This document shows, one piece after another, positions 1,703-37,582 of a stretch of 64,000 bases of DNA. The position numbers and the translations under genes are program-made. The notes beneath the pieces were generated by a model. It saw only the letters and a program-made list of their open reading frames with translations. It did no database searches and had not been told where the DNA came from. The stretch is from Mageeibacillus sp. UBA5747. Its GTDB lineage: Bacteria > Bacillota > Clostridia > Saccharofermentanales > UBA5734. The DNA lies in assembly GCA_002419145.1 (NCBI GenBank), contig DIFN01000076.1:51620-115619 (forward strand), given 5' to 3'. Positions within the stretch are counted from its first letter, which is position 1. The number at the start of each line of letters is the position of its first letter.

Positions 1703-2959
1703 ATGATCAATATTGCCATTCTGGGCTATGGTATTGTCGGCAGTGGTGTCGGCGAAGTGATCCATATGAATCAGGATTCGCTCGAAACCAGGACTGGGCA
1801 GCGCATTGACATCAAGAAAATTCTGGACTTGCGGGAATTCCCCCAGGATCCTTATGGCGACCGGGTCACTCGTTCAGCCGACGAAATCATGGATGATCCT
1901 GAAATTTCAGTTGTTGTCGAAACCATTGGCGGTGTTTCGATCGCCTATGACCTGACCAAAAGGGCTCTTTTGGCTGGCAAACATGTGGTCACTTCAAACA
2001 AGGAACTCGTTGCCACCCATGGACCTGAACTCATGGCCCTCGCAGATGCCAACAGTGTCAACTATCTGTTTGAGGCCAGTGTGGGCGGCGGCATCCCGAT
2101 CATCCGCCCCTTGCATAAATGCCTGGCAGCCAACGTTATCCTCGAAATCTCCGGTATCCTGAATGGGACGACCAATTATATCCTGACCCGGATGGAGCAT
2201 GCCGGAATTGACTTTACTGCGGCCCTCAAGGAAGCCCAGGAGCGGGGCTATGCGGAACAAAACCCGACCGCGGATATAGCAGGCATTGATGCTTGCCGCA
2301 AAATTGCCATTCTCGCCAGCATCGCGACCGGAGAATACATCGACAGCCGCAAAATCCACACCGAAGGCATTGCCTCAGTGACCACTGCGGATATGGCTTA
2401 TGCTCGCCAGCTGAACCGTAAAGTCAAGCTGCTGGGCCGGTTTTTGCACCATGACGGTCACACATACAACTTGATTGTAGCCCCGATGCTGGTCAGAACC
2501 ACAGAACCGCTTGCGGTGGCGGATGATGTTTTCAATGCGATCCAGGTCCGTGGCAACGCCCTCGGAACGGCCATGTTCTACGGCCGTGGCGCCGGCAAAC
2601 TGCCCACAGCCAGCGCAGTCGTGGCTGACATCATCGAATGTGTCATGCACCTGGGCAAAAAGCCTCATGTCGCTCTGTGGCAGGATACAGGGAGGGAGAA
2701 CATCCTGGCGCATGAACTGGCACCTGTCCAGGCCTTGATCCGTCTCGACCCCCAGGTTTCCCGGACCCAAGTGGAGGCGTTATTCAACCCTTATGGCCTG
2801 GACTGGCTTGAACCGGTCCTTCCAGGCGAAATAGCCTGCACCGTTGGTTTCAATCCGGAAAATCCCTTGCTGGAAGGACAGCTATCTGACCAGCTTTCCA
2901 TCTTGGACGATTATCTGGCTGGCTGGATGAGACTTTGCACCTGCGAAAGTACCCTGTAA
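1703..2959 (+). CDS. hom: Homoserine dehydrogenase
   Basis: 418 aa with an N-terminal Rossmann motif (ILGYGIVGSGV), VVTSNKEL, and a C-terminal ACT-like region. GGGAGG RBS lies 7 nt upstream. Confidence 0.9.
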   Translation: MINIAILGYGIVGSGVGEVIHMNQDSLETRTGQRIDIKKILDLREFPQDPYGDRVTRSADEIMDDPEISVVVETIGGVSIAYDLTKRALLAGKHVVTSNKELVATHGPELMALADANSVNYLFEASVGGGIPIIRPLHKCLAANVILEISGILNGTTNYILTRMEHAGIDFTAALKEAQERGYAEQNPTADIAGIDACRKIAILASIATGEYIDSRKIHTEGIASVTTADMAYARQLNRKVKLLGRFLHHDGHTYNLIVAPMLVRTTEPLAVADDVFNAIQVRGNALGTAMFYGRGAGKLPTASAVVADIIECVMHLGKKPHVALWQDTGRENILAHELAPVQALIRLDPQVSRTQVEALFNPYGLDWLEPVLPGEIACTVGFNPENPLLEGQLSDQLSILDDYLAGWMRLCTCESTL

Positions 2960-2962
2960 ACT

Positions 2963-3012
2963 AAAAAAACCGTCCCGGCTGCACCTGTCAGCTATGGGAC
3001 GGTTTTGTTTTT
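2963..3012. terminator. Bidirectional rho-independent terminator between hom and the convergent zinc-ribbon gene
   Basis: A7 run, stem CCGTCCC (2970-2976) / GGGACGG (2996-3002), then TTTTGTTTTT. Confidence 0.7.
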
Positions 3013-3043
3013 ACAGATCAGGACAGAAAAGAGGCTATGCAGA

Positions 3044-3220
3044 TCAGAATCTGTTGTCCATGCCACCCTGCTGACGTCTGCTGTTCTTGCGGGCCTTGCG
3101 GCAGTCTGGGCAACGAACGGGTTCGTTCTCAAAGCCCTTCTCTTTGTAGAATGCCTGTTCACCTTCGGTGAACGCGAATTCGACTCCACAGTCTTTGCAT
3201 GTTAAGATTTTGTCTGGCAT
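3044..3220 (-). CDS. Small zinc-ribbon domain protein (two CxxC pairs)
   Basis: Start set at MPDKILTCKDCG, with a GGGAGG RBS 10 nt upstream. CKDC...CPDC with FAFTEGEQAFYKEKGF is typical of the widespread 'probable zinc-ribbon' small proteins. Confidence 0.7.
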   Translation of the reverse strand: MPDKILTCKDCGVEFAFTEGEQAFYKEKGFENEPVRCPDCRKARKNSRRQQGGMDNRF

Positions 3221-3339
3221 GTTGGAAAAACCTCCCAATTAATCTCGGATCAAGCAAGTGACAGTGGCTTTTCCAAAGAATTCAGGAGGTCAGGACCTAC
3301 TCATTCTGTCCGGCTCAGGCTGTGAACAAACTTTATCCG

Positions 3340-3369
3340 TTGTTCGGATCATAGCATACATGGTATAAT
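3340..3369 (+). promoter_or_regulatory. Candidate extended -10 promoter for the DRTGG/HydS-like operon
   Basis: TTGTTC (3340-3345), 18-bp spacer, TGgTATAAT (-10 at 3364-3369). Predicts a leader of roughly 95 nt. Confidence 0.4.
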
Positions 3370-3474
3370 GTTTTCAAGTGTGTTTAGACAAACTGTTGGA
3401 CACAATGCTGGAAATCCACCAGCGATCTGTGCAAGATCAACCTATATTCAGAACTACTTCGCAAGGAGACCGTT

Positions 3475-3825
3475 ATGAAACTGAGTGAATGTGTCGACGC
3501 CATCTCTGCTACTGTCCTGGTCACGGGTGAAGATATGGATCTGGATGTCCAAGTTGCCTGTGGAGCTGACCTGATGAGTGACGTGATGGCCTTTTCCTGC
3601 TCGACCAACCAGATGATGCTGACAGGTCTGGTCAATCCGCAGACCATCCGGACCGCAGAGATGATGGACGTCAAAGTGGTCGTTTTTGTCCGCGGCAAAG
3701 TACCGGACCAGGGCATGCTCGACCTGGCTCGGGAGAAGGGCATTTGTGTCCTGTCGACACCCCTGCCGATGTTTTCGGCCTGTGGCATCTTGTACCAGAA
3801 CGGTGTCAGGGGCAAGGGGGAGTAA
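3475..3825 (+). CDS. DRTGG domain-containing protein
   Basis: 116 aa. Its size and sequence pattern (ADLMSDVM..., MLTGLVNPQTIRTAEMMDVKVVVFVRG) match the small DRTGG proteins found in hydrogenase-associated clusters. AAGGAG RBS. Confidence 0.7.
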   Translation: MKLSECVDAISATVLVTGEDMDLDVQVACGADLMSDVMAFSCSTNQMMLTGLVNPQTIRTAEMMDVKVVVFVRGKVPDQGMLDLAREKGICVLSTPLPMFSACGILYQNGVRGKGE

Positions 3826-4254
3826 ATGATCGAACCGGTCAAACTCGAATACAAGATCCGCGGCTCTGATTTCATCAACGCCGGTGAGGCATCCAGCGGC
3901 ACCAAAAAGGCTCTCAACCGGCTTGGCGTATCCCCCGCGGCCGTGAAGCGGGCGGCTATTGCCATGTACGAAGCAGAAATCAATGCCGTGATTCACGCGA
4001 ATGGTGGCGAAGCAGAGGTCCTCATCTATTCAGACCATGTGGTCATCCGGATCAGCGATCAGGGGCCAGGCATTCCTGACGTCAGCCTGGCCATGCAGGA
4101 AGGCTGGTCTACAGCACCTGACATTGCGCGCGAAATGGGTTTCGGCGCTGGCATGGGCTTGCCTAATATCAAAAAGCATTCGGACGACATGTCCATCGAA
4201 ACGGAGATTGGCAAGGGCACCACTGTCACGATCATTGTCCGTTTCCAAGACTAA
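3826..4254 (+). CDS. SpoIIAB-like GHKL ATPase (anti-sigma regulatory factor / Ser-Thr kinase-like)
   Basis: 142 aa with N-box EAEINAVIHA, G1 DQGPGI and G2 GFGAGMGLPNI. No His-phosphoacceptor domain. Confidence 0.8.
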   Translation: MIEPVKLEYKIRGSDFINAGEASSGTKKALNRLGVSPAAVKRAAIAMYEAEINAVIHANGGEAEVLIYSDHVVIRISDQGPGIPDVSLAMQEGWSTAPDIAREMGFGAGMGLPNIKKHSDDMSIETEIGKGTTVTIIVRFQD

Positions 4255-4265
4255 AGGGAATTCTC

Positions 4266-5627
4266 ATGGCTAAACTCCATTCTGTGCGGCTGAACGAAGA
4301 CAAATGCGTTGGCTGCACGAACTGCATCAAGAAATGTCCAACCGAAGCGATCCGGGTTCGTAACGGCAAGGCCAGGATTGCCGAGGAGCGCTGCATCGAT
4401 TGTGGTGAATGCATCAAAGTGTGTCCCCATCATGCCAAAAGTGCTGAAATGGACACCCTCAATGCCCTGAAAGCTTTCCGTTACACCATTGCCCTGGCTG
4501 CACCGTCGCTCTATGCCCAGTTCGGAGCCCCGGCAACACGCCCCATGGTACTGGCGGCCCTGCTTAATATCGGGTTCGATGATGTTTACGAGGTCGCCAT
4601 CGGGGCGGAAGTGGTCACCAAGGGGACCTGCGATTACCTGCCCCAGGCCCGATCGTCTTCTCAACTACCACTGATATCCTCTGCCTGTCCGGCTGTTGTC
4701 CGGGTTATCCAGGAAAAATATCCCGGCCTGATCGATAACCTGGTCCCGTTTGATTCCCCGATGGAGGTGACTGCTGAACTGGCCCGGCGCGATGCCCTGG
4801 CCCGGACCAACCTCAAATCACAGGAAATCGGCATCTTTTTCATCAGCCCCTGCCCGGCCAAGCGGACCGCCGTGACCAATCCGATTGGTAACCGCCCGAC
4901 CCAGGTGGATGGCGTCCTGTCTATTGCCGAAATCTACCCCCAGATTCTGGCTAAACTTGAGAAAATAAACCCGGACCAGGTGGAAGCATGTGAGCAACGG
5001 ATCCTGGCTGATGCCACCGGAGTCGGCTGGGGTGCCAGCGGCGGTGAGGCCATGGGCCTCCAGACTGAAAAATACCTGGTGGTTGATGGTATCCATAATG
5101 TGATCGATATCCTTGAAGAGATTGAGAACGAACGCTTGCGCGACATCGAGTTTATTGAAGCGAATTCCTGCATGGGTGGCTGTATTGGAGGGCCCCTGAC
5201 GGTAGCCAACCGTTTTTCCGCCAAATCACGCATGAATCGCTACATTCAGGAAGCTCTTGTTTTCGAGGCTGATCACCAGGATTTAGTCTACAAACCAGAC
5301 CGGGAAGTGATCCGCCCCTGGTTCGATATGCCGCAGGCTAACAATGCCCTGACCCTGGATCCAGATATTTTCAAAGCCTTGGAAAAATACGAACAGATGG
5401 AGAAAATCACCCATCAATTGCCAGGTCTCGATTGCGGTGCCTGTGGTGCCCCGGATTGTGCTGCCCTGGCAGAAGACATCGTGCGCGGTCTGGCGGTTGA
5501 GTCGGACTGCATCTTCAAGCTTAAAGAGCGGATCCGCTCGGTAGCTGCCCAGATGAGCGAACTGGAATTTGAAATGAACAGGCATTCCAAACCAGCAGAA
5601 GGGGAGAAAGAACATGGTCACACTTGA
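4266..5627 (+). CDS. [FeFe]-hydrogenase-like Fe-S protein (HydS-type putative sensory homolog)
   Basis: Two ferredoxin motifs (CVGCTNCIKKCP, CIDCGECIKVCP). H-domain-like motifs SSACPAV, SPCPAKR and SCMGGCIGGP. C-terminal CGACGAPDC...C Fe-S domain. Confidence 0.8.
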   Translation: MAKLHSVRLNEDKCVGCTNCIKKCPTEAIRVRNGKARIAEERCIDCGECIKVCPHHAKSAEMDTLNALKAFRYTIALAAPSLYAQFGAPATRPMVLAALLNIGFDDVYEVAIGAEVVTKGTCDYLPQARSSSQLPLISSACPAVVRVIQEKYPGLIDNLVPFDSPMEVTAELARRDALARTNLKSQEIGIFFISPCPAKRTAVTNPIGNRPTQVDGVLSIAEIYPQILAKLEKINPDQVEACEQRILADATGVGWGASGGEAMGLQTEKYLVVDGIHNVIDILEEIENERLRDIEFIEANSCMGGCIGGPLTVANRFSAKSRMNRYIQEALVFEADHQDLVYKPDREVIRPWFDMPQANNALTLDPDIFKALEKYEQMEKITHQLPGLDCGACGAPDCAALAEDIVRGLAVESDCIFKLKERIRSVAAQMSELEFEMNRHSKPAEGEKEHGHT

Positions 5628-5958
5628 TCAGGTGCGCGATGCCCTGGGAGCGCAGATTCTCGTGGGCAACGATCTGGCCCGACGACCGGTCGCTGGTGGC
5701 TATGCCTGTGACATGCTCAGCTGGGTGATGTCTCATGCCCAGCCGACGGATGTCTGGATGACGATCCTGAACAGCATTAATGTAATTGCCGTGGCAGTCC
5801 TGACTGACTGTGCCTGTGTTCTGCTCACGGAAGGGGTGGAACTGCCCCCGGACGTAGCCGCCCGGGCTCAGGACAAAGGGGTGGTGGTCCTTGGCACCCA
5901 GGCCTCGACGTACGAGGCCAGTGCGCAGCTGCATGCGTTTCTCAACCCTCTCTTGTGA
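5614..5958 (+). CDS. DRTGG domain-containing protein (second copy)
   Basis: 114 aa, paralogous in pattern to 3475-3825 (ACDMLSWVM..., VAVLTDCACVLLTEG). Overlaps the upstream gene by 14 nt. Confidence 0.7.
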   Translation: MVTLDQVRDALGAQILVGNDLARRPVAGGYACDMLSWVMSHAQPTDVWMTILNSINVIAVAVLTDCACVLLTEGVELPPDVAARAQDKGVVVLGTQASTYEASAQLHAFLNPLL

Positions 5959-6695
5959 TCGCCCACTGTGATCTTCACATTCATTCGGCCTTGTCGCCCT
6001 GCTCAGATGATGACATGTCACCGGGCTTGATTGTTGGCCTGGCCAAATTGGCTGGGCTTGATTTCATTGCCATCACGGATCATCAGTCTTGTGGCAACTG
6101 TGCTGCCGCTATGGCCCTTGGCGAAGCTTATGAGGGACCGGTTGTTGTGCCAGGCATGGAGATCGAATCCAGCGAAGAAATCCACTTGCTCTGCCTGTTT
6201 CCTGATTTACAGGCGGCAAAGGAGCTGGAGACACTCGTCCAGCAGGCGATGTTGCCTCTGAAAAACCGGCCGGAAATTTTTGGCGAGCAGTTGCTGTTTA
6301 ACGAAGAGGATGAAGCAACTGGATGCGAGAGTCGCCTGCTGCTGCAGGCCTGCCAGCTGTCTTGCGATGAAATTGCCCGCCAGGTGCTGGCCCGAGGCGG
6401 GGTCTGTATTCCGGCCCATCTGGACCGGGAAGCCAACAGCATGCTGCAAAACCTTGGCGCTGTCCCGCAAGATTTTCCCACGGATTGGATCGAATTGTCC
6501 AAACGGTCTGACCCTGCCCTGTTTTTCCGGAATCATCCAGACTTGGCCTGCTACCATAGCCTGATCGATTCGGATGCCCATCACCTGACCCAGATCGAAG
6601 AGCCTGGCTGGCCGATTGACGTGCAGCCCTGGTCCAATCCTGCTCAAGCCCGGCTGCATCTGCTCGCTGCCTTGCGACCCCGCTTCAGGCAATGA
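5955..6695 (+). CDS. PHP domain phosphoesterase
   Basis: The N-terminal CDLHIHSALSPCSDD and AITDH motifs are a PHP metal-binding signature. GTG start in a GTGA overlap with the upstream gene. Confidence 0.8.
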   Translation: MIAHCDLHIHSALSPCSDDDMSPGLIVGLAKLAGLDFIAITDHQSCGNCAAAMALGEAYEGPVVVPGMEIESSEEIHLLCLFPDLQAAKELETLVQQAMLPLKNRPEIFGEQLLFNEEDEATGCESRLLLQACQLSCDEIARQVLARGGVCIPAHLDREANSMLQNLGAVPQDFPTDWIELSKRSDPALFFRNHPDLACYHSLIDSDAHHLTQIEEPGWPIDVQPWSNPAQARLHLLAALRPRFRQ

Positions 6696-6732
6696 TATAA
6701 TATGGCCCAGTTTCACACTGAATGGAGAGCCT

Positions 6733-7299
6733 ATGCGCGATCTTTCGCTCCACCTGATGGACATCGTCCAGAATTCCGTCAAAGCACGGGCGACTGCAAT
6801 CGAGATTGAGATTGATGCCAGGCCTGATGCAGACCAGCTCGTCCTGCGCGTCCGGGACAATGGCTGCGGCATGCCGCCGGAAATGGTGGCCACCGTGCAG
6901 GACCCTTTTGTAACGACAAGGACAACCCGTTCGGTTGGACTCGGCATTTCGCTGCTCAAAGAGTTGTGCGAGCTGACCGGAGGCCATCTGGAAATCGAGT
7001 CCAGTGCAGGTGTCGGGACCTGTCTGGTGGCCACTTTGGGCTTGTCCAGCATCGATCGTCTGCCTCTGGGCGATCTGGGTGATACATTTTACATTTTGCT
7101 GTCTGCTGACCCGAGTCTGGACTATTCCCTCAAACTGACTGCACAAGACAGGACATTCAAGCTCGACATGACTGAAATCAGGGCAGAGATCCCTGATTTG
7201 CCCGTTGATGATCCAGCTGTCCTGAACTGGATTCGAGCCTACATCCATGAGAACCAGACTGCTGTTTTCAGTGGTGTGCTCGATGAGATCGAAAGCTGA
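6733..7299 (+). CDS. Stand-alone GHKL (HATPase_c) ATP-binding protein
   Basis: Start set at MRDLSLHLMDIVQNS with a GGAG RBS. Motifs: N-box DIVQNSVKA, G1 DNGCGM, G2 GLGISLLKE. No sensor or DHp domain. Confidence 0.75.
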   Translation: MRDLSLHLMDIVQNSVKARATAIEIEIDARPDADQLVLRVRDNGCGMPPEMVATVQDPFVTTRTTRSVGLGISLLKELCELTGGHLEIESSAGVGTCLVATLGLSSIDRLPLGDLGDTFYILLSADPSLDYSLKLTAQDRTFKLDMTEIRAEIPDLPVDDPAVLNWIRAYIHENQTAVFSGVLDEIES

Positions 7300-7342
7300 A
7301 CTGGCTGGACTCGACATCCGACCAATGACCGTCAAAGAGTGA

Positions 7343-7379
7343 CCTTGCGGACTCGACAACGGCTCCGCAAGGCTTTTTT
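7343..7379 (+). terminator. Rho-independent terminator closing the six-gene operon
   Basis: Stem CCTTGCGGA / TCCGCAAGG followed by C TTTTTT. Confidence 0.7.
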
Positions 7380-7390
7380 AAGGAGAGAAC

Positions 7391-8137
7391 ATGAACCTGA
7401 TTCTGACACTCGAAGCCTTGAAAGTTTACAAAGTCAAACATGAACGACTGATCCAGCTCGCTTTCGTCGTATTGTATCTGATCAACATTGCCCCCTATGT
7501 GCTGCCTGTGGGTGACATGGATTTTTCTGGCTTTCTATACGCCACGGAAAAGTTCATCCAGGATCCTTCCCAGCCAGTGCCCCAGCTGACATCCGGTAAT
7601 CTGCTTTCGCTGGGCTTGATTGCAGTCACCGGGCTGGTCGATCTTCTGGTTGCCCTGAGCTATTCGGTATTATTGGCCGGTGAGCAAGCCAGACTTCCGG
7701 GCAAAACCATACTGCTTCGCTTCGCCAAAGGACTTCCCGCGCTCTTGCTGACCTTGCTTTTGCTGCTGGTGCCCGTCCTGTTGTCTTCATTGCTCTTCAT
7801 GATTCCCGCCCTGATTCTGGTCACGAATCTGTATGTCCTGCCTGTCTTGCTCCTCTTGGAAAATCGCAAACTGACTGAAGCGCTGCAGGCATCGATCCAG
7901 CTGGTCAAAGGTTTCAAAATGATGATCTTGCTGCAGATGTTTTTCCTTTCGATCATCCTCTCCCTGCCGGAAAGCCTGATCCTGAGCTTTTTGCCGCAGA
8001 CCCTTTTAACATCCATCCTCGTTCCCCAGTTTTTCGTGGTGCTCCAAGTGTTTGCCCAAGGTCGCCTTTTAGGCATGTTCTATCTTTTCCTTGTAAAAAA
8101 AGTTCCGATTGTGATACCATCGAAGCCACAACTTTGA
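7391..8137 (+). CDS. Hypothetical polytopic membrane protein
   Basis: 248 aa, Leu-rich, with several hydrophobic segments. AAGGAGAG RBS. No family recognised with confidence. Confidence 0.5.
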   Translation: MNLILTLEALKVYKVKHERLIQLAFVVLYLINIAPYVLPVGDMDFSGFLYATEKFIQDPSQPVPQLTSGNLLSLGLIAVTGLVDLLVALSYSVLLAGEQARLPGKTILLRFAKGLPALLLTLLLLLVPVLLSSLLFMIPALILVTNLYVLPVLLLLENRKLTEALQASIQLVKGFKMMILLQMFFLSIILSLPESLILSFLPQTLLTSILVPQFFVVLQVFAQGRLLGMFYLFLVKKVPIVIPSKPQL

Positions 8138-9840: not shown

Positions 9841-10946
9841 TTGAATACGACCAGTACCGTCAAGAACTGGGCCAGTATGTGGAAAAGCTGGACCAGTTGC
9901 GGCTGGCCTTGCACATTGACCATGTCCGTGATGAAATTGCCGAGCTGGAGGCCCGGGCTCAGGAGCCAGGCTTTTGGGACGATGTCGAAAGAGCCCAGAA
10001 GATTCAGACCAAGGTCAAGCATCTGCAAAAGAAAGTGGACCGTTTCCAGGCCCTGGTGCGGGAGTATGAAGACCTGGAAGTGCTGCGCGAGCTTGGTGAA
10101 GAAGCCGAAGACAAGGAAATCGCTCAGGAGATTGCTGAAAATCTTAAAAAATTGCAGCATGACTATGAGCAGATGCGACTTGAGACCCTATTCACCGGCG
10201 AATACGATGCCAGCAATGCCATTGTCACTTTGCATGCTGGTGCGGGCGGGACAGAAGCCCAGGACTGGACTGAAATGCTGTACCGCATGTACACCCGCTG
10301 GGCCGAAGCGCACGATTTTGAAATCAAGCTGCTCGACATCCTTGATGGGGATGAGGCGGGTCTGAAAAGTGTCTCCTTCATGCTGATCGGGGACAATGCC
10401 TACGGGTACATGAAGTCCGAGATGGGTGTCCATCGCCTGGTCCGGATTTCCCCTTTTGATTCGTCTGGACGCCGACACACGTCTTTTGCCTCGGTCGAAG
10501 TCATGCCGGAACTGGATGACTCGATTAAGATCGACATCCGGTCCGACGATCTCAAGGTCGACACCTACCGCTCATCCGGCGCCGGTGGCCAGCACGTCAA
10601 TAAAACCGAGTCTGCGATCCGCATCACCCATGTCCCGACCGGCGTGGTTGTTTCCTGCCAGACCGAACGCTCTCAGGTCCAGAACCGGGAAACAGCCATG
10701 GGTATGCTGAAAGCAAAATTGTTTGCCATGGCCCGAGCGGCCCACATGGACAAGATTGAAGACCTGAAGGGTAATCAGATGGCCATCGCCTGGGGCAGTC
10801 AGATCCGTTCGTATGTTTTCTGCCCCTATACCATGGTCAAGGACTTGCGCACCGGCTATGAAGTTGTGGACGTGGACAGTGTCATGGATGGCAATCTGGA
10901 CGGATTCATCAACGCCTATCTGTCCGGTCAGAAGGCAAGCAAATGA
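9837..10946 (+). CDS. prfB: Peptide chain release factor 2
   Basis: 369 aa with the SPF tripeptide (RISPFDS), GGQHVNKTESA (GGQ) and an RF2-type N-terminus. Single uninterrupted frame. ATGA overlaps on both sides. Confidence 0.9.
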   Translation: MIEYDQYRQELGQYVEKLDQLRLALHIDHVRDEIAELEARAQEPGFWDDVERAQKIQTKVKHLQKKVDRFQALVREYEDLEVLRELGEEAEDKEIAQEIAENLKKLQHDYEQMRLETLFTGEYDASNAIVTLHAGAGGTEAQDWTEMLYRMYTRWAEAHDFEIKLLDILDGDEAGLKSVSFMLIGDNAYGYMKSEMGVHRLVRISPFDSSGRRHTSFASVEVMPELDDSIKIDIRSDDLKVDTYRSSGAGGQHVNKTESAIRITHVPTGVVVSCQTERSQVQNRETAMGMLKAKLFAMARAAHMDKIEDLKGNQMAIAWGSQIRSYVFCPYTMVKDLRTGYEVVDVDSVMDGNLDGFINAYLSGQKASK

Positions 10947-11800
10947 GTGACCGTGCCCTGAGAAGCCCGGAAGAGTTGCTGGCAGACCTGGCGGATGTTA
11001 TTTTGCCCCTGGGGAAAATCGCCGTTGCCAGCTCAGGTGGGGTGGACAGCACGGTTCTGGTTGTAGCTGCCGCACACATCCTGGGTCCGGATAACGTCCT
11101 GGCCGTGACTGCACTGGCCCCAATGGTCCCAGGCGATGACCAGGAGGATGCGAGTCGTGTCGCCGGCCTGGCTCAAGTCAGACATTTGACGGCTCGCCTG
11201 CCGGAGTCCATACTCGACCTGCCACCCTTTGCAAAAAATCCACCAGATCGCTGTTATCACTGCAAGAAGATCCTGTTCGATGCCTTGCTGGCCTTAGCGC
11301 ATGGAGCTGGGTTCAACGTTTTGTGCGATGGAACCAATCGAGACGACCTCAAAGACTACAGACCTGGCCTCCGGGCTTTGGAAGAATTAAAGGTGATGAG
11401 CCCTCTGGCTGGAGCCGGCTTTTCCAAAGCTGAAGTGCGCGCGCTGGCAGCCCAGATTTGTCCGGATTTTGCCGCAAAACCTGCTATGGCGTGCCTGGCG
11501 ACCCGCATTCCAACCCATACGCCTGTTACTCTGGCTGCTCTGAAACGGATAGACACAGCCGAAACCTTGCTGCGCCAAAAAGGTTTGGGGCAGGTTCGTG
11601 TGCGCGACCATGCGGGTCTGGCCCGGGTCGAGCTCGAGCCAGCTTTTTTAGAAAAAGGGCTTGCTCCGGACTGGATTGTGCTGGTGCGTGACTGCCTTTT
11701 GGAGGCAGGATTTGCATTTGCCACCCTGGACCTCCAGGGTTATCGCACCGGCAGCATGAATCCTGCGGCGAACCTGACCAGACAGGAAGGATTCTCATGA
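10943..11800 (+). CDS. larE: LarE-type ATP-dependent sulfur transferase (nickel-pincer cofactor biosynthesis)
   Basis: 285 aa with a PP-loop (SSGGVDST), a CYHCKK motif and MACLATRIP. Followed by larB and larC. Confidence 0.85.
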   Translation: MSDRALRSPEELLADLADVILPLGKIAVASSGGVDSTVLVVAAAHILGPDNVLAVTALAPMVPGDDQEDASRVAGLAQVRHLTARLPESILDLPPFAKNPPDRCYHCKKILFDALLALAHGAGFNVLCDGTNRDDLKDYRPGLRALEELKVMSPLAGAGFSKAEVRALAAQICPDFAAKPAMACLATRIPTHTPVTLAALKRIDTAETLLRQKGLGQVRVRDHAGLARVELEPAFLEKGLAPDWIVLVRDCLLEAGFAFATLDLQGYRTGSMNPAANLTRQEGFS

Positions 11801-12513
11801 CAGAGCAATTTGAAGATTTGGGCTTTGCCAAAGTCGACCATGCTCGCAAATCCAGAAATGGGTTTGCCGAGGTGGTTTTTTGTGAAGGCAAGACCCCTGA
11901 GCAAGCCGCACAGATTGCAATCAGCATCCTGGACCATGGTGACAATCTCCTGGCCACACGGGCCGACTTGGAGCATTTTGAAGCCATCCAGGCGATTGCG
12001 CCGGATGCCGCTTATTCAGCCCGGGCCCGGGTGATCACTGTCCGCCGGTATCCGGTTGGTTATATGGGAGACGTTGCGGTGGTTTCGGCTGGGACAGCAG
12101 ACCAGCCGGTCGCAGAAGAAGCTGCATTGACCGCTGAAGCTCTGGGCTGTCAGGTCACGCGCTATTCAGATGTTGGAGTGGCCGGTCTGCATCGTCTTCT
12201 GGCTGTCATCGATGACATCCGAAAAGCCGATGTGATCATTGCTGTCGCTGGTATGGAAGGTGCTCTGGTCAGTGTGCTGGGCGGCCTGGTGGACAAGCCT
12301 GTCCTGGCGGTTCCGTCGGGCATCGGTTATGGTGCCAATTTGGGCGGCGTAACGACCTTGCTGGCCATGGTCAATTCCTGTGCCAGCGGAGTGGCGGTCC
12401 ACAATATCGGCAATGGCTTTGGTGCCGGATTCATGGCTGCGACCATTTGCCGTCAGATCGATCAGCGCGTCCGTGCCGCACTGGCTCGCAAAGACCTTGA
12501 AAGGCACCCATAA
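11797..12513 (+). CDS. larB: LarB, pyridinium-3,5-biscarboxylic acid mononucleotide synthase (PurE-like carboxylase/hydrolase)
   Basis: 238 aa. The N-terminal GFAKVDHARKSRNGFAEVVFCEGK and the AIR-carboxylase-like C-terminal half are typical LarB patterns. Confidence 0.85.
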   Translation: MTEQFEDLGFAKVDHARKSRNGFAEVVFCEGKTPEQAAQIAISILDHGDNLLATRADLEHFEAIQAIAPDAAYSARARVITVRRYPVGYMGDVAVVSAGTADQPVAEEAALTAEALGCQVTRYSDVGVAGLHRLLAVIDDIRKADVIIAVAGMEGALVSVLGGLVDKPVLAVPSGIGYGANLGGVTTLLAMVNSCASGVAVHNIGNGFGAGFMAATICRQIDQRVRAALARKDLERHP

Positions 12514-12515
12514 AC

Positions 12516-13814
12516 ATGAACATGAAACAGAAAATTCTCTACCTTGACTGTTTTTCTGGTATCAGCGGCGACATGTTCCTGGGATCCCTGATTGACATTG
12601 GAGTCCCACTGTCTGTCATTGAACAGGGACTGATGCCTCTTGGCCTGGCAGGCGAATACCACCTCCATGCTGAAAAGACCAGCAAAAGCGGCATTCAGGG
12701 CACCTCTTTTTCGGTCCACTTGACCGGCCATCACCACCACGATCACCACCACGGCGATGACCACCATCACGGCCGGACCTACGCGGACATCCGGCATTTG
12801 ATTGAAACCGCGCCGTTGCCGGACCCTGTTCGCCAGATGGCCCTCGCTGTCTTCCTTGAAATCGGGCAGGCCGAAGCGGCCGTGCATGGGGTGGCTCTGG
12901 ACCACGTCCATTTCCACGAAGTGGGGGCCATCGATTCCATCGTCGATATCGTAGGCACTGTCCTTGCGCTTGATTATCTTAAGATCGACCGGATCCAGTC
13001 ATCCTCACTCCAGGATGGTTCCGGAAGCATCCTGTGCCAGCATGGCTCCATGCCGGTTCCCGTTCCAGCTGTGATGAAGATGCTGGAAAACACTGACATT
13101 CCCTATGTGACGGGCACCAGTGACACCGAACTGGTCACACCGACCGGTTTTTCCCTGGTCAAGACGCTGGCGTCTTCTTTTGGCTCCATGCCTCAGATGA
13201 AGCGTCTGGCGATTGGCTATGGGTTTGGCCAGCGGGATATCGGTCGTCTCAATGCCCTGCGCATCATCCTGGGAGAAACGACCGAGTCTGCCTCGTCGAT
13301 GACAACGGATCCGGCCGAACAGGCGAGTCTGGTCCAGGCACCCGTTCGGTCCCTGCCAGGATTTGATCCCTCGGAAATGGACCGGGTGGTCCTTTTGTCC
13401 TGTCATATTGACAACTCTACAGCTGAACAACTGGGGTATCTGAGCGAACTTATGTACCAGAAAGGTGCGCTTGATGTTGCTTTGAGTCCTCTCCAGATGA
13501 AAAAGAATCGACCTGGACACCTTTTGACGGTCCTTGTGTCAGAAAACTTTGAAAAAGACGCGGTCCGACTCCTGTTCACCCATACTGGAACCATCGGCAT
13601 CCGGCGTGAATGGATCGATCGCCATGTCATGACTCGCAGCATCAGATCCATTCAAGTTCTAGGACAAGCCATCCGGATCAAGACTGTGCAGTGGCAAGAC
13701 GTCACACACGCTTACCCGGAATACGAAGACATCGCCGATCTGGCCCGGCGCAACCAGCTCAGTCTCGAAGCAGCCAGAGAGCGGATCAAAGAGGCCATGA
13801 GCCGGCTGGTTTGA
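12516..13814 (+). CDS. larC: LarC nickel insertion protein (cyclometallase)
   Basis: 432 aa with N-terminal LYLDCFSGISGDMFLGSLIDIGVP and a His-rich tract (HHHHDHHHGDDHHH). Single ORF with no internal frameshift. Confidence 0.85.
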   Translation: MNMKQKILYLDCFSGISGDMFLGSLIDIGVPLSVIEQGLMPLGLAGEYHLHAEKTSKSGIQGTSFSVHLTGHHHHDHHHGDDHHHGRTYADIRHLIETAPLPDPVRQMALAVFLEIGQAEAAVHGVALDHVHFHEVGAIDSIVDIVGTVLALDYLKIDRIQSSSLQDGSGSILCQHGSMPVPVPAVMKMLENTDIPYVTGTSDTELVTPTGFSLVKTLASSFGSMPQMKRLAIGYGFGQRDIGRLNALRIILGETTESASSMTTDPAEQASLVQAPVRSLPGFDPSEMDRVVLLSCHIDNSTAEQLGYLSELMYQKGALDVALSPLQMKKNRPGHLLTVLVSENFEKDAVRLLFTHTGTIGIRREWIDRHVMTRSIRSIQVLGQAIRIKTVQWQDVTHAYPEYEDIADLARRNQLSLEAARERIKEAMSRLV

Positions 13815-36862: not shown

Positions 36863-37582
36863 ATGATCCAATTCGACTGTCACGTCCACTCTGTAGCCAG
36901 CGGCCATGCCTTTGGCACGATGGAGGAAATTGCTGCCTATTGCCGGACCTTTCACCTGGACGGATTTGCCCTGACCGACCACGGGCCGGCCATGCCCGGT
37001 TCCGCCAGCTGGATCTATTTCTCAGCCATCCGCATGGTGCCGCGAGAGCTCCAGGGAGTCAAGATCTTGCGTGGTATCGAAGCCAACCTGATGGATTACA
37101 AGGGCCAACTCGATCTAGAGGACTCGCTTTTAAAAAAGCTCGATGTCGTGATCGCATCCTTCCATGACCTGCTGATCCAGCCCAAAACCAGACAGGAGCA
37201 TACCCAGGCTCTGGTTGCCGCTGCTCAAAACCCGCTGGTGGATATTCTGGGTCACACGGGTCGGGGCGGGTACGATTATGATATTCCGACTGTTCTCAAA
37301 GCCTGCCGGGATACCGGAACCATGATCGAGGTCAATCGCTGGACTTTGAAAGGGGATCCCAGCAATTCAATCTGTTACGAAATTGCTCGGGGGTGCAAAG
37401 AACTTAATGTTCCGATCGTAATCAACAGCGATGCACATACAGCTGACCAGGTCGGCCGAGTAGACGAGGCTTACGAATTAGTCCGTTCCCTGGGGATTCC
37501 GGATGAACAGATCATCAATCGAACCTATGCGTCTTTTCAAGCCCATCAGGAAAAACGCAAGCCCTGGCTGGATTTTTCCTGA
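36863..37582 (+). CDS. PHP family phosphatase (YcdX-like)
   Basis: 239 aa with DCHVHSVASGHA, LTDHGP and NSDAH metal-binding motifs. GGGAGG RBS. Confidence 0.8.
   Translation: MIQFDCHVHSVASGHAFGTMEEIAAYCRTFHLDGFALTDHGPAMPGSASWIYFSAIRMVPRELQGVKILRGIEANLMDYKGQLDLEDSLLKKLDVVIASFHDLLIQPKTRQEHTQALVAAAQNPLVDILGHTGRGGYDYDIPTVLKACRDTGTMIEVNRWTLKGDPSNSICYEIARGCKELNVPIVINSDAHTADQVGRVDEAYELVRSLGIPDEQIINRTYASFQAHQEKRKPWLDFS

Follow-up and report, generated by a model that had tools for sequence, protein, structure and literature searches.

A six-gene locus at positions 3475-7299 of the 64-kb stretch of DNA analyzed here (the window) is read, with modest preference, as an apparatus for H2- or redox-sensing, ATP-dependent signaling. 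It would represent a Group D (TamHydS-type) sensor apparatus that has become detached, in the clade to which the window belongs, from the bifurcating-hydrogenase genes that usually adjoin it. Because neighboring genes for a hydrogen-producing enzyme are absent, the module offers a clean case for how such sensors relay their signal.

Gene layout, transcription signals, and selection

All six genes lie on the + strand. D1 (positions 3475-3825, 116 aa) encodes a divergent DRTGG-fold protein, k (3826-4254, 142 aa) a SpoIIAB/RsbW-like GHKL ATPase or Ser/Thr kinase (HATPase_c_2), S (4266-5627, 453 aa) a Group D (M2e) putative sensory [FeFe]-hydrogenase, D2 (5614-5958, 114 aa) a DRTGG protein, P (5955-6695, 246 aa, GTG start) a PHP-family metal-dependent phosphoesterase, and K (6733-7299, 188 aa) a GHKL ATPase. 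D1 and k abut with a 0-nt gap, k and S are separated by 11 nt, S and D2 overlap by 14 nt, D2 and P overlap in a GTGA, and 37 nt separate P from K. Five of the six starts have a Shine-Dalgarno-like sequence in front of them; the exception is P, which is coupled to D2 via the GTGA, in which its GTG start overlaps the D2 stop codon.

The promoter of the five-gene block, P1 (3340-3369, + strand), has the extended -10 form TTGTTC-N18-TGgTATAAT. Its core ATCCGTTGT...CATACATGnTATAAT is kept in most of 10 related loci despite saturated synonymous sites. P1 also overlaps a - strand promoter-like site (3377->3348) that faces the zinc-ribbon gene.

An internal promoter, P2 (6672-6701, + strand; TTGCGA-N18-TGaTATAAT, extended -10), was found directly upstream of K, with a scan score of 10/12 and the upstream TG present. 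P2 is kept in 10/10 loci of the clade; a caveat is that its -35 element coincides with codons at the end of P for a conserved Ala-Leu-Arg, whereas no coding constraint acts on the -10 element. The intrinsic terminator (7343-7379, + strand) consists of the hairpin CCTTGCGGA...TCCGCAAGG followed by T6, with a fold energy of -19.5 kcal/mol (z = -3.2), and sits where related loci have a 2Fe-2S ferredoxin gene. A hairpin with a T-run is found at the equivalent position in L087 and L007, the two nearest species, and the sequence changes there appear compensatory, as judged by eye rather than by a count of pairs.

Positions of ORFs, junctions, promoter, and terminator, read from the sequence, were as given in the preliminary description. 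Its view of the six genes as one transcription unit is too simple, because K has its own conserved promoter. P2 fits an origin of K in a separate hydrogenase unit (see below).

Strong purifying selection acts on each of the six genes. The ORFs are intact in nine species with saturated synonymous sites, and the dN/dS values relative to the sister species (D1 0.08, k 0.03, S 0.06, D2 0.07, P 0.11, and K 0.12) fall in the same range as those of the flanking housekeeping genes.

The hydrogenase homolog and its partner proteins

S comprises two N-terminal [4Fe-4S] motifs, an H-domain, and a C-terminal Cx2Cx4Cx16C motif (C390/C393/C398/C415). Pfam reported two Fer4 motifs, Fe_hyd_lg_C (1.7e-39), and FeS PF04060 (1.3e-11), and no PAS domain. 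The cysteine ligands of the H-cluster (C141, C196, C302, and C306) are invariant, and the H-cluster site is intact. The proton-transfer cysteine is replaced by alanine (A140) and M353 by serine (S194), and the residues reported as conserved in Group D are present (PMC13104023, PMC10407848). Judged from its sequence, S thus agrees in every published criterion (PMC8163306, PMC10407848, PMC13104023) with Group D (M2e) putative sensory [FeFe]-hydrogenases of the TamHydS type.

The earlier label of S as 'HydS-like' was correct as to hydrogenase homology but too loose, as S fits all Group D (M2e) sequence criteria. Similarly, the statement that no biochemical role has been established for the gene set holds for the partner proteins, which are unstudied, but not for S, because it belongs to a named and studied class. 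TamHydS shows low turnover and high H2 affinity (PMC8163306), H2-induced changes of its secondary structure have been published, and its C-terminal cluster is not reduced by H2 (PMC13104023). Its signal transduction route is an open question according to its authors (PMC8163306), and that Group D enzymes act as sensors at all is so far a proposal.

The ATPase k was matched by Pfam HATPase_c / HATPase_c_2 (about 1e-12) and by SpoIIAB in the PDB (2e-8); the NCBIfam spIIAB score of 53.6 bits is under the cut-off of 135 for that model. The ATP motifs N-box, G1, and G2 are kept in 81 homologs. For D1, the Pfam DRTGG match (1.6e-3) is under the Pfam cut-off, and a profile of D1 homologs matches the DRTGG domain of PDB 3L2B (2.6e-4). 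In a manual alignment to what we take to be the Pfam consensus, the eponymous DR and TGG positions appear as VN and RGK. Invariant residues of D1 are G30, D32, S35, D36, T50, G51, R73, G74, and K75.

D1 is fused to k in at least 120 protein clusters (90% identity). In a model of such a natural fusion (pLDDT 87, pTM only 0.75), the k half matches SpoIIAB (TM 0.84, rmsd 2.2 A) as well as RsbW and UsfX, and the D1 half matches the DRTGG structures 2IOJ (TM 0.79) and 3L31. D1 and k form one functional unit, because they are fused in many genomes and the fusion model combines a SpoIIAB-like half with a DRTGG half. D2 was recognized by Pfam as DRTGG (4.8e-10) and Hpr_kinase_N (1e-4). In a relative of the window's clade (P0074, seen in two independent assemblies), D2 is joined to the C-terminal end of S. 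Because of this fusion, and of the translational coupling in the window, S and D2 constitute one unit. Natural fusions (D1 to k, S to D2) point to the parts that probably work together.

The Pfam PHP match of P (2e-4) is under the cut-off. A profile of P homologs matches the PHP enzymes EndoQ (9e-12) and RNase AM (3e-10), and also TrpH-like phosphoesterases; the closest solved relatives are nucleases and nucleotide phosphatases, not PHP protein phosphatases of the CpsB/YwqE type. The invariant His, Asp, and Glu residues (D6, H8, H10, D42, H43, E69, H77, H155, D207, and H209) are candidate metal ligands. The HxH motif is retained only with the GTG start; public gene calls begin later.

In K (Pfam HATPase_c, 1.5e-20), a catalytic domain of the histidine-kinase type precedes an alpha/beta domain of about 85 aa, and there is no DHp/His domain. 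The protein belongs to a family of ~1545 members with a uniform length of ~188 aa, and its ATP-binding motifs are conserved. PDB searches returned histidine-kinase CA domains (up to 2e-12), and the best full-length structural matches of the AF2 model (pLDDT 86, pTM 0.84) were the MutL N-terminus and Topo VI-B. By fold comparison, K resembles MutL-type ATPases as much as kinases. Overall, the domain assignments made earlier were all right, the two Pfam calls under the cut-off, D1 and P, being backed by profiles and other evidence.

Distribution and closest known systems

A survey of 83 non-redundant loci from Clostridia was evaluated, 75 of which were informative for stand-alone status. Gene orders are written as D (DRTGG), k (SpoIIAB-like ATPase), S (HydS), P (PHP), E (NuoE-like), K (GHKL ATPase), f (2Fe-2S ferredoxin), F (NuoF-like), and A (HydA). 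The block D-k-S-D-P is conserved in 71/83 loci and adjoins the electron-bifurcating hydrogenase unit E-K-f-F-A in 42 of them (36 on one strand, 6 divergent). The presumed interleaving of members of the gene set with NuoE, NuoF, and HydA genes in Clostridia was thereby recovered, the canonical order being D-k-S-D-P then E-K-f-F-A. K is placed between the NuoE-like and 2Fe-2S genes in other loci. It is usually part of the neighboring hydrogenase unit; here it is retained with its own promoter, and E, F, and A are absent. A Rex-box-like sequence precedes E in 18/44 cases, as against 0.55% of background windows; in the window's clade, 0/9 loci have one upstream of K.

In ~24 of the 75 informative loci the five-gene block stands alone, the nearest 5 kb or more being free of hydrogenase genes. 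Stand-alone modules are therefore not rare; the peculiarity of the window's clade is a locus that has kept K but contains no E, F, or A. This clade is monophyletic, uncultured, and Oscillospiraceae-like, and comprises nine species. None has NuoE-like, NuoF-like, or HydA genes beside the module, K follows directly after P, and synteny is conserved. Trees of S and of K both recover the arrangement D-k-S-D-P-K(f) as monophyletic; the window species additionally lacks the 2Fe-2S gene. An HMM scan of the 64-kb window found no HydA, NuoE-like, NuoF-like, or small 2Fe-2S genes, in agreement with the initial claim that the module is locally stand-alone. To act as a sensor, S needs the HydEFG maturases; no hydEFG-like gene was detected among the large ORFs of the window or in the 10 kb to its left in the same organism (L001).

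S shares with TamHydS from Thermoanaerobacter mathranii the domain architecture, the lack of PAS, the loss of the proton-transfer cysteine, the exchange of M353 for Ser, and the Group-D-conserved residues. Furthermore, a histidine-kinase-like ATPase gene is adjacent in the TamHydS locus as well (PMC8163306). TamHydS is encoded upstream of a trimeric bifurcating hydrogenase and beside an AraC regulator, whereas neither a catalytic hydrogenase nor any regulator lies nearby in the window. No description of the DRTGG and PHP partners, or of the fusions, was found in the literature searched. Group C enzymes (TmHydS, Ruminococcus albus HydS, and Thermoanaerobacterium HfsB) likewise combine an H-cluster, a disrupted proton pathway, a C-terminal [4Fe-4S] cluster, and proposed H2-sensing, but have a C-terminal PAS domain and other partner sets. 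Their genes also adjoin catalytic hydrogenases (PMC8924675, PMC13104023).

K of the window is the ortholog of the GHKL ATPase in clostridial HydABC operons of the order E-K-f-F-A, from which the locus differs by the lack of NuoE-like, NuoF-like, HydA, and 2Fe-2S genes and of the Rex-box-like sequence. With the SpoIIAB-SpoIIAA-SpoIIE and RsbW-RsbV-RsbU modules, the block has in common the fold and ATP motifs of anti-sigma Ser kinases in k, a small alpha/beta partner encoded beside k and often fused to it, and a phosphoesterase gene. Here, however, the partner is DRTGG instead of STAS, the phosphoesterase PHP instead of PP2C, no sigma factor is linked, and the input is an Fe-S/H-cluster protein. 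In the HoxBC-HoxJ-HoxA system of Cupriavidus, a low-activity [NiFe]-hydrogenase acts as H2 sensor and controls a PAS histidine kinase with a response regulator. The proposed logic of a low-activity hydrogenase sensor controlling a kinase would be similar, but the metal site is unrelated and the window module contains no PAS histidine kinase or response regulator.

Proposed signaling mechanism and alternatives

In the proposed mechanism, H2, or the redox poise set by H2, would alter the H-cluster state and the conformation of S. From S the change would be passed to D2, which would dock at the C-terminal Fe-S domain, and D2 may bind its paralog D1 by contacts between the two DRTGG proteins, thereby controlling the ATP-dependent activity of k. 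By analogy, D1, D2, and k would act in a partner-switching-like manner with DRTGG proteins in place of STAS antagonists, and D1 might accept the phosphate on its invariant Ser35. P may reset the system, or remove a phospho- or nucleotide ligand. K would be a second ATP-driven switch linking the module to its target. In most genomes this would be the HydABC enzyme encoded next to it, or the genes for that enzyme; in the window's clade, the target would have to lie elsewhere. The sensor or signaling reading of the preliminary description is reasonable in view of the Group D identity of S and the conserved block, but no output protein was found in or beside the operon. Pfam and NCBIfam gave no DNA-binding protein there, in line with the preliminary description; sigma factor, STAS protein, PP2C phosphatase, DHp domain, and response regulator are likewise absent in and beside it.

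An unlikely alternative is that these are accessory or post-translational control proteins of HydABC and not a signal-transduction pathway. In that case k and K would be chaperone- or clamp-like GHKL ATPases, D1, D2, and P would aid assembly or gating of the bifurcating complex, and S would either work slowly as an auxiliary hydrogenase or serve as an electron-entry module. In 42 loci, K and the small 2Fe-2S gene form part of the catalytic unit, where they separate the NuoE-like from the NuoF-like gene. This location is consistent with such a role, as are the MutL and Topo VI-B matches of K and the lack of a transcription factor in the block. However, strong purifying selection maintains the block in a clade where E, F, and A are not adjacent, and the five genes occur alone in ~24 loci. 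Moreover, K matched no solved HydABC chain, its PDB matches being histidine-kinase CA domains and MutL, and the kinetics of TamHydS are sensor-like (PMC8163306).

We regard it as rather improbable that nucleotides, and not protein phosphorylation, are the currency of the signal, with DRTGG binding an adenine nucleotide or dinucleoside polyphosphate and P hydrolyzing this ligand or RNA/nucleotide. The P-family profile is closest to EndoQ, RNase AM, and nucleotide phosphoesterases of the TrpH type, and the weak NCBIfam matches of P include RNase RNM and 3',5'-bisphosphate phosphatase. The closest DRTGG domain of solved structure belongs to a CBS-pyrophosphatase regulatory region, which was reportedly crystallized with AMP and Ap4A (3L2B/3L31), and the invariant S35, D36, T50, G51, R73, G74, and K75 of D1 could form a phosphate-binding site. 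On the other hand, the block encodes no nucleotide cyclase or synthetase, and both the fold and the motifs of k are those of SpoIIAB/RsbW protein kinases.

The absence of E, F, and A, and of the 2Fe-2S gene in the window species, would also be expected of a functionless, decaying remnant of a hydABC operon after deletion of the catalytic genes. This is very improbable, being contradicted by the selection analysis (ORFs intact in nine species, dN/dS of 0.03-0.12 like the housekeeping neighbors), by the retention of all cofactor ligands and ATP motifs, and by the conservation of both promoters and the terminator. An anti-phage defense or mobile-element system of GHKL ATPases and a PHP nuclease, suggested by weak NCBIfam matches of P to the PHP domains of TrlF and Ppl, is exceedingly improbable, as the PADLOC matches are trivial and domain-level only, the locus lies in conserved housekeeping synteny, and the module is tied to hydrogenase genes across Clostridia.

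Gene content and distribution of the module

The locus is a modified form of the known arrangement of a sensory hydrogenase beside a bifurcating hydrogenase, here without the catalytic genes and with the second ATPase kept under its own promoter. ORF calling reproduced exactly the six plus-strand genes and all five junctions claimed for it: D1 (first DRTGG protein, 3475–3825), k (SpoIIAB-like ATPase, 3826–4254, 0 nt after D1), S (hydrogenase homolog, 4266–5627, 11 nt after k), D2 (second DRTGG protein, 5614–5958, overlapping S by 14 nt), P (PHP protein, 5955–6695, with a GTG start and a 4-nt GTGA overlap with D2), and K (GHKL ATPase, 6733–7299, 37 nt after P). Each domain named in the preliminary description was recovered with Pfam, those of D1 and P below cut-off. 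Specifically, D2 matched DRTGG (PF07085) at 4.8e-10 (39.7 bits, cut-off 25.2) and D1 matched it at 1.6e-3 (18.7 bits, under the gathering score of 25.2); HATPase_c / HATPase_c_2 matches were found in k and K, and P matched PHP (PF02811) at 2e-4 (22.1 bits, below the gathering score of 26.4).

For the proposed neighbourhood survey, an alignment of S homologs was searched against one genome per species and the 80 best matches were retrieved with 10-kb flanks; being the best matches to the query alignment, they tilt the sample towards relatives of the S in the window. ORFs were clustered, an HMM was made for each conserved family, and domains were mapped, with representatives confirmed with Pfam. 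The resulting letter code comprises D (DRTGG), k (small SpoIIAB-like ATPase), S (HydS), P (PHP), K (188-aa GHKL ATPase), f (125-aa thioredoxin-like 2Fe-2S protein), E (NuoE-like), F (NuoF-like), and A (Group A HydA). D-k-S-D-P was complete in 71 of the 83 non-redundant loci. It was followed on the same strand by E-K-f-F-A in 36 of the 83 and lay divergent from it in six, so that the interleaving with NuoE, NuoF, and HydA genes given in the preliminary description was correct. About 24 of the 83 loci held the five-gene block alone, with none of E, K, f, F, or A within at least 5 kb; nine, the window included, carried D-k-S-D-P-K(f) without E, F, and A, and eight were uninformative contig ends. 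Stand-alone five-gene blocks are fairly common, and the window form is special because K is kept.

The nine D-k-S-D-P-K(f) loci, hereafter the clade, were monophyletic in neighbour-joining trees of S and of K and are labelled uncultured Oscillospiraceae, Clostridia, or Eubacteriales. Their shared gene order runs from hom through a minus-strand zinc-ribbon gene, the module, and a membrane protein to AsnC/aminotransferase genes and prfB. PAS-GGDEF-EAL and glnA-like genes lie between hom and the zinc-ribbon gene in three related loci (L003, 4966–8591; L005; L006), and the window lineage is without both; GGDEF-EAL genes also come after the five-gene block in loci L019 and L024. Behind prfB, the window carries larE/larB/larC-like genes (10943–13814: a 285-aa ORF without a Pfam match on record, AIRC, and Ni_insertion), a set of the nickel-pincer cofactor pathway; larA was not noticed nearby. 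In most clade relatives the end of K is overlapped by f, a thioredoxin-like 2Fe-2S protein of 123–128 aa (for example L003, 13004–13381; L005; L006; L089, 4477–4848). It is absent after K in the window (7300–7390), in the sister species (L087), and in L007, with a terminator in its place.

That the module stands alone in the window was borne out. Using HMMs from 44–45 examples each of HydA, NuoF-like, and NuoE-like proteins, no A, E, F, or f was found in the 64-kb window, whose large ORFs are housekeeping genes. Likewise, no HydA, NuoE-like, or NuoF-like gene was found in the 10 kb to its left in the same organism, which hold only ppx, argS, rsmF, ham1, a metallophosphoesterase, an ACT protein, hom, and the zinc-ribbon gene. 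The S of the window also occurs on a hydrocarbon-metagenome contig of the same organism.

Promoters and intergenic DNA

The promoter (3340–3369, TTGTTC-N18-TGgTATAAT) and terminator (7343–7379, -19.5 kcal/mol, z = -3.2) proposed for the module are both visible and both conserved in related species. The promoter core ATCCGTTGT...CATACATGnTATAAT is kept in most of 10 clade loci and overlaps a divergent promoter-like site (3377 to 3348) of the zinc-ribbon gene. This minus-strand gene (3044–3238) encodes a 58-aa treble-clef protein (zf_Tbcl, 1.2e-24) that matches its homolog in the approximately 90%-identical sister species at every residue (100% identity); as it adjoins the module, divergently, only in this clade, it was not counted as a member. 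The intergenic DNA between them (3239–3474) contains the conserved motifs TGACAGTG and an AGGAGG..CCTxC inverted repeat. An Rfam search over 2900–7600, including the 105-nt leader, gave nothing credible.

A second promoter lies at the P/K junction (6672–6701, TTGCGA-N18-TGaTATAAT) and is conserved in all 10 clade loci. Its -35 element (TTGCG) falls on codons of P for a conserved C-terminal Ala-Leu-Arg; its extended -10 element is free of coding constraint. The six genes had been described as one transcription unit, which stood in part: K has its own promoter, and read-through from the first promoter into K is likely because no terminator was seen between P and K. Where the catalytic unit is present, 80–500 nt separate P from E, and this interval often contains TTGAAT-N17-TGnTATAAT with a TTGTTAAnnnnTTAACAA palindrome behind it (for example in loci L016, L021–L023, L028, L029, L033, L035, and L036). 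Given these promoters between P and E and the internal promoter of the window, D-k-S-D-P and E-K-f-F-A are normally separate units, the K of the window keeping its own promoter.

The TTGTTAAnnnnTTAACAA palindrome is what we take to be the clostridial Rex-box consensus. Allowing up to two mismatches, 18 of 44 regions upstream of E contained such a palindrome, as did 4 of 78 upstream of D1 and 0.55% of random windows; at the K promoter of the clade none was found in nine loci at the same tolerance.

The putative sensor hydrogenase and its partner proteins

S, a protein of 453 aa, had been called a HydS-like [FeFe]-hydrogenase homolog; its relation to hydrogenases was confirmed, and the label proved too loose. 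Pfam identified two N-terminal ferredoxin-type (Fer4) motifs, Fe_hyd_lg_C (1.7e-39), and FeS PF04060 (1.3e-11). The H-cluster ligands C141, C196, C302, and C306 all align with ligand cysteines of solved hydrogenases and are invariant in an alignment of 12 homologs; Lys199 is also retained. A140 occupies the position of the proton-transfer cysteine (C299, CpI numbering; TSCCP to SSACP), and S194 replaces Met353 (MPCxxK to SPCPAK). Every cysteine of the C-terminal motif C390-x2-C393-x4-C398-x16-C415 is invariant in the homolog alignment. The protein stops 38 residues past the last of them, and Pfam gave no match to a PAS domain.

Two N-terminal [4Fe-4S] motifs, a C-terminal Cx2Cx4Cx16C motif, absence of a PAS domain, loss of the proton-transfer cysteine, and exchange of M353 for Ser/Thr define Group D (M2e), of whose "putative sensory" [FeFe]-hydrogenases only TamHydS from Thermoanaerobacter mathranii has been characterised (PMC8163306). 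Reported as conserved in Group D are R30, R32, K35, K58, E392, and D393, together with E252, E289, S249, and D265 of an alternative proton path (TamHydS numbering; PMC13104023, PMC10407848). R30, R32, K35, K58, E403, D404, E261, E298, and D274 do not vary among S homologs, and the window S has S258, the correspondence to TamHydS being based on offsets of +9 and +11 mapped from motifs and not on an alignment with the TamHydS sequence. Since the published sequence definition applies, S can be assigned by sequence to the Group D (M2e) putative sensory [FeFe]-hydrogenases, a named class beyond "HydS-like": it combines the four H-cluster cysteines, N- and C-terminal Fe-S motifs, absence of PAS, the Cys and Met353 replacements, and the conserved residues. 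In HydS proteins of Group C (M2f), by contrast, the Fe-S motif is followed by a C-terminal PAS domain, and S falls outside that group. As a predicted Group D trait, S would bind a [2Fe] subcluster and react with H2 at low turnover, for which HydEFG would be required.

D1 is a DRTGG protein despite its sub-threshold Pfam score: a profile of 33 homologs matched the DRTGG domain of 3L2B, the D1 half of a fusion model matched the DRTGG structures 2IOJ and 3L31, and D1 clustered together with D2 when ORFs were grouped into families. It is the best-conserved partner in the module, with G30, D32, S35, D36, T50, G51, R73, G74, and K75 invariant. At what we take, from a manual alignment, to be the DR and TGG positions of the consensus it reads VN and RGK, which would account for the weak score. 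The 142-aa k matched HATPase_c_2 (2.7e-12, Pfam) and SpoIIAB (2e-8; structural TM 0.84), and reached 53.6 bits against the NCBIfam SpoIIAB equivalog, under the cut-off of 135.

Natural fusions join neighbouring members. The fused D1-k ORF of related locus L052, used as a query, yielded at least 120 distinct clusters of DRTGG-HATPase_c_2 proteins (256–279 aa, full coverage) in Thermoanaerobacterales, Thermosediminibacter, Thermovenabulum, Caldanaerovirga, and also an Aminicenantales MAG, annotated as "RsbT" or "anti-sigma regulatory factor". In the AF2 model of one of them (pLDDT 87, pTM 0.75, linker disordered), the C-terminal half superposed on SpoIIAB (TM 0.84, rmsd 2.2 Å), RsbW, and UsfX, and the N-terminal half on DRTGG structures and the HPr kinase N-terminal domain. 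A 545-aa S=D2 fusion (P0074) was found in a clade locus of the form D1-k-[S=D2]-P-K-f, in two independent assemblies. These fusions indicate that D1 and k, which abut with zero gap in the window, and S and D2, whose genes share 14 nt there, are physically coupled.

Public gene calls begin P at internal ATGs (6015 instead of 5955 in the window; 11750 in L001, from the same organism, and 11846 in L088), and the resulting proteins of 226 or 194 aa lack the invariant metal-binding motif DLHIHS. The start that fits the family is the GTG at 5955. The candidate metal-binding residues H8, H10, D42, H43, E69, H77, H155, D207, and H209 are invariant, and a profile of 34 homologs matched EndoQ (9e-12), RNase AM (3e-10), and TrpH-like phosphoesterases. 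On these matches P is assigned to the PHP superfamily and, within it, probably to the branch of nucleases and nucleotide phosphatases, not to the CpsB-type protein phosphatases. Another gene, 30 kb away (36863–37582), encodes a second, unrelated PHP protein that is YcdX / PRK09248-like (253 bits).

K consists of a histidine-kinase-type catalytic domain and, after it, an alpha/beta domain of approximately 85 aa; compared along its whole length, it is closest to the N-terminus of MutL and to Topo VI-B. A length of about 188 aa is shared throughout its roughly 1545 relatives. Two-component histidine kinases bear their phospho-accepting His on a DHp/HisKA domain and act with a response regulator, whereas the module has neither: no HisKA/DHp match was obtained in K or k, both of which begin at or near the ATPase domain, and no receiver-domain gene was found near the module.

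A proposed signalling route and its alternatives

We lean towards the view that this is an ATP-dependent signalling module that senses H2 or redox state. S has an intact sensor-type site of Group D, selection acts on the conserved block, and K accompanies the module even where the enzyme genes are missing. Of the preliminary description, the observation held and the interpretation did so in part, as the six genes have two promoters and stand-alone blocks are fairly common.

H2 would alter the state of S; H2-induced secondary-structure changes in TamHydS are mentioned as earlier work in PMC13104023. The change would then pass from D2, at the C-terminal end of S, to its paralog D1 through DRTGG pairing, and D1 would gate k, with its invariant Ser35 as a possible phospho-acceptor. 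P would reset the system, and K would connect it to the target. Neither the operon nor its flanks encode an output protein, and no conserved output gene was found beside stand-alone five-gene blocks, where the neighbours are lineage-specific housekeeping genes. The signalling reading leans on a sensory role of Group D that is itself putative, and has a weak point in the C-terminal cluster of TamHydS, which does not respond to H2 (PMC13104023).

With SpoIIAB/RsbW partner switching the module shares the HATPase_c_2 fold of the anti-sigma Ser kinase, present in k. That system further comprises a STAS antagonist, a PP2C phosphatase, and a cognate sigma factor, none of which is encoded in the operon or flanks here; DRTGG and PHP proteins hold the positions that STAS and PP2C occupy there. 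Although it departs from the canonical system, the module may still operate in a similar manner. Tentatively, D1-k-S-D2-P and K could constitute an undescribed H2-responsive, ATP-dependent form of partner switching, in which a DRTGG adaptor/phospho-acceptor pair couples an H-cluster sensor to a SpoIIAB-like kinase, PHP resets it, and the target in the clade is not an adjacent hydrogenase. If so, the clade system would control, for example, global fermentation or syntrophy genes by H2 partial pressure. Because fermentation balance and syntrophy are under the control of H2 partial pressure, a defined clostridial H2-sensing pathway would matter for gut and digester ecology and for the engineering of biofuel strains.

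It is rather doubtful that the partner proteins are accessory or regulatory subunits of HydABC. An electron-bifurcating HydABC operon consists of Group A HydA, NuoF-like HydB, and NuoE-like HydC, and all three are missing at the window locus. Another weak point of the signalling reading is that the relatives of P point to a substrate that is a nucleotide or nucleic acid. A nucleotide-ligand system appears unlikely. That the module is a decaying remnant is highly improbable. Compared with the sister species L087 (about 90% amino-acid identity), which was used because dS is saturated against more distant relatives, dN/dS was 0.08 for D1, 0.03 for k, 0.06 for S, 0.07 for D2, 0.11 for P, and 0.12 for K, with 0.04–0.14 for the flanking hom, asnC-like, aminotransferase, and membrane protein genes. 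In distant clade members dS is saturated, yet the ORFs, cofactor ligands, and ATP motifs are intact. A defence system can practically be dismissed, as PADLOC found nothing.

Group D enzymes are called "putative sensors" without a PAS domain, and the groups working on TamHydS state that the signal-transduction route is unknown. For a signalling role, the locus and its relatives provide a concrete parts list, with two fusion clues to contacts (D1 with k, S with D2) and a naturally occurring "minimal" form whose sensor set survives without neighbouring catalytic genes, making the question testable. The locus is valuable chiefly for the module architecture that it exposes, and less for its stand-alone state. 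No discussion of DRTGG/PHP partners and fusions beside a hydrogenase was found in the searchable literature. The hfsABCD genes, a Group C/B system in the papers on them, are a different gene set. In related locus L044, a 637-aa [FeFe]-hydrogenase-like protein (11398–13311) directly follows k and S in place of D2 and P; by eye, its C-terminus resembles a methyl-accepting-chemotaxis signalling domain (Group C2-like).
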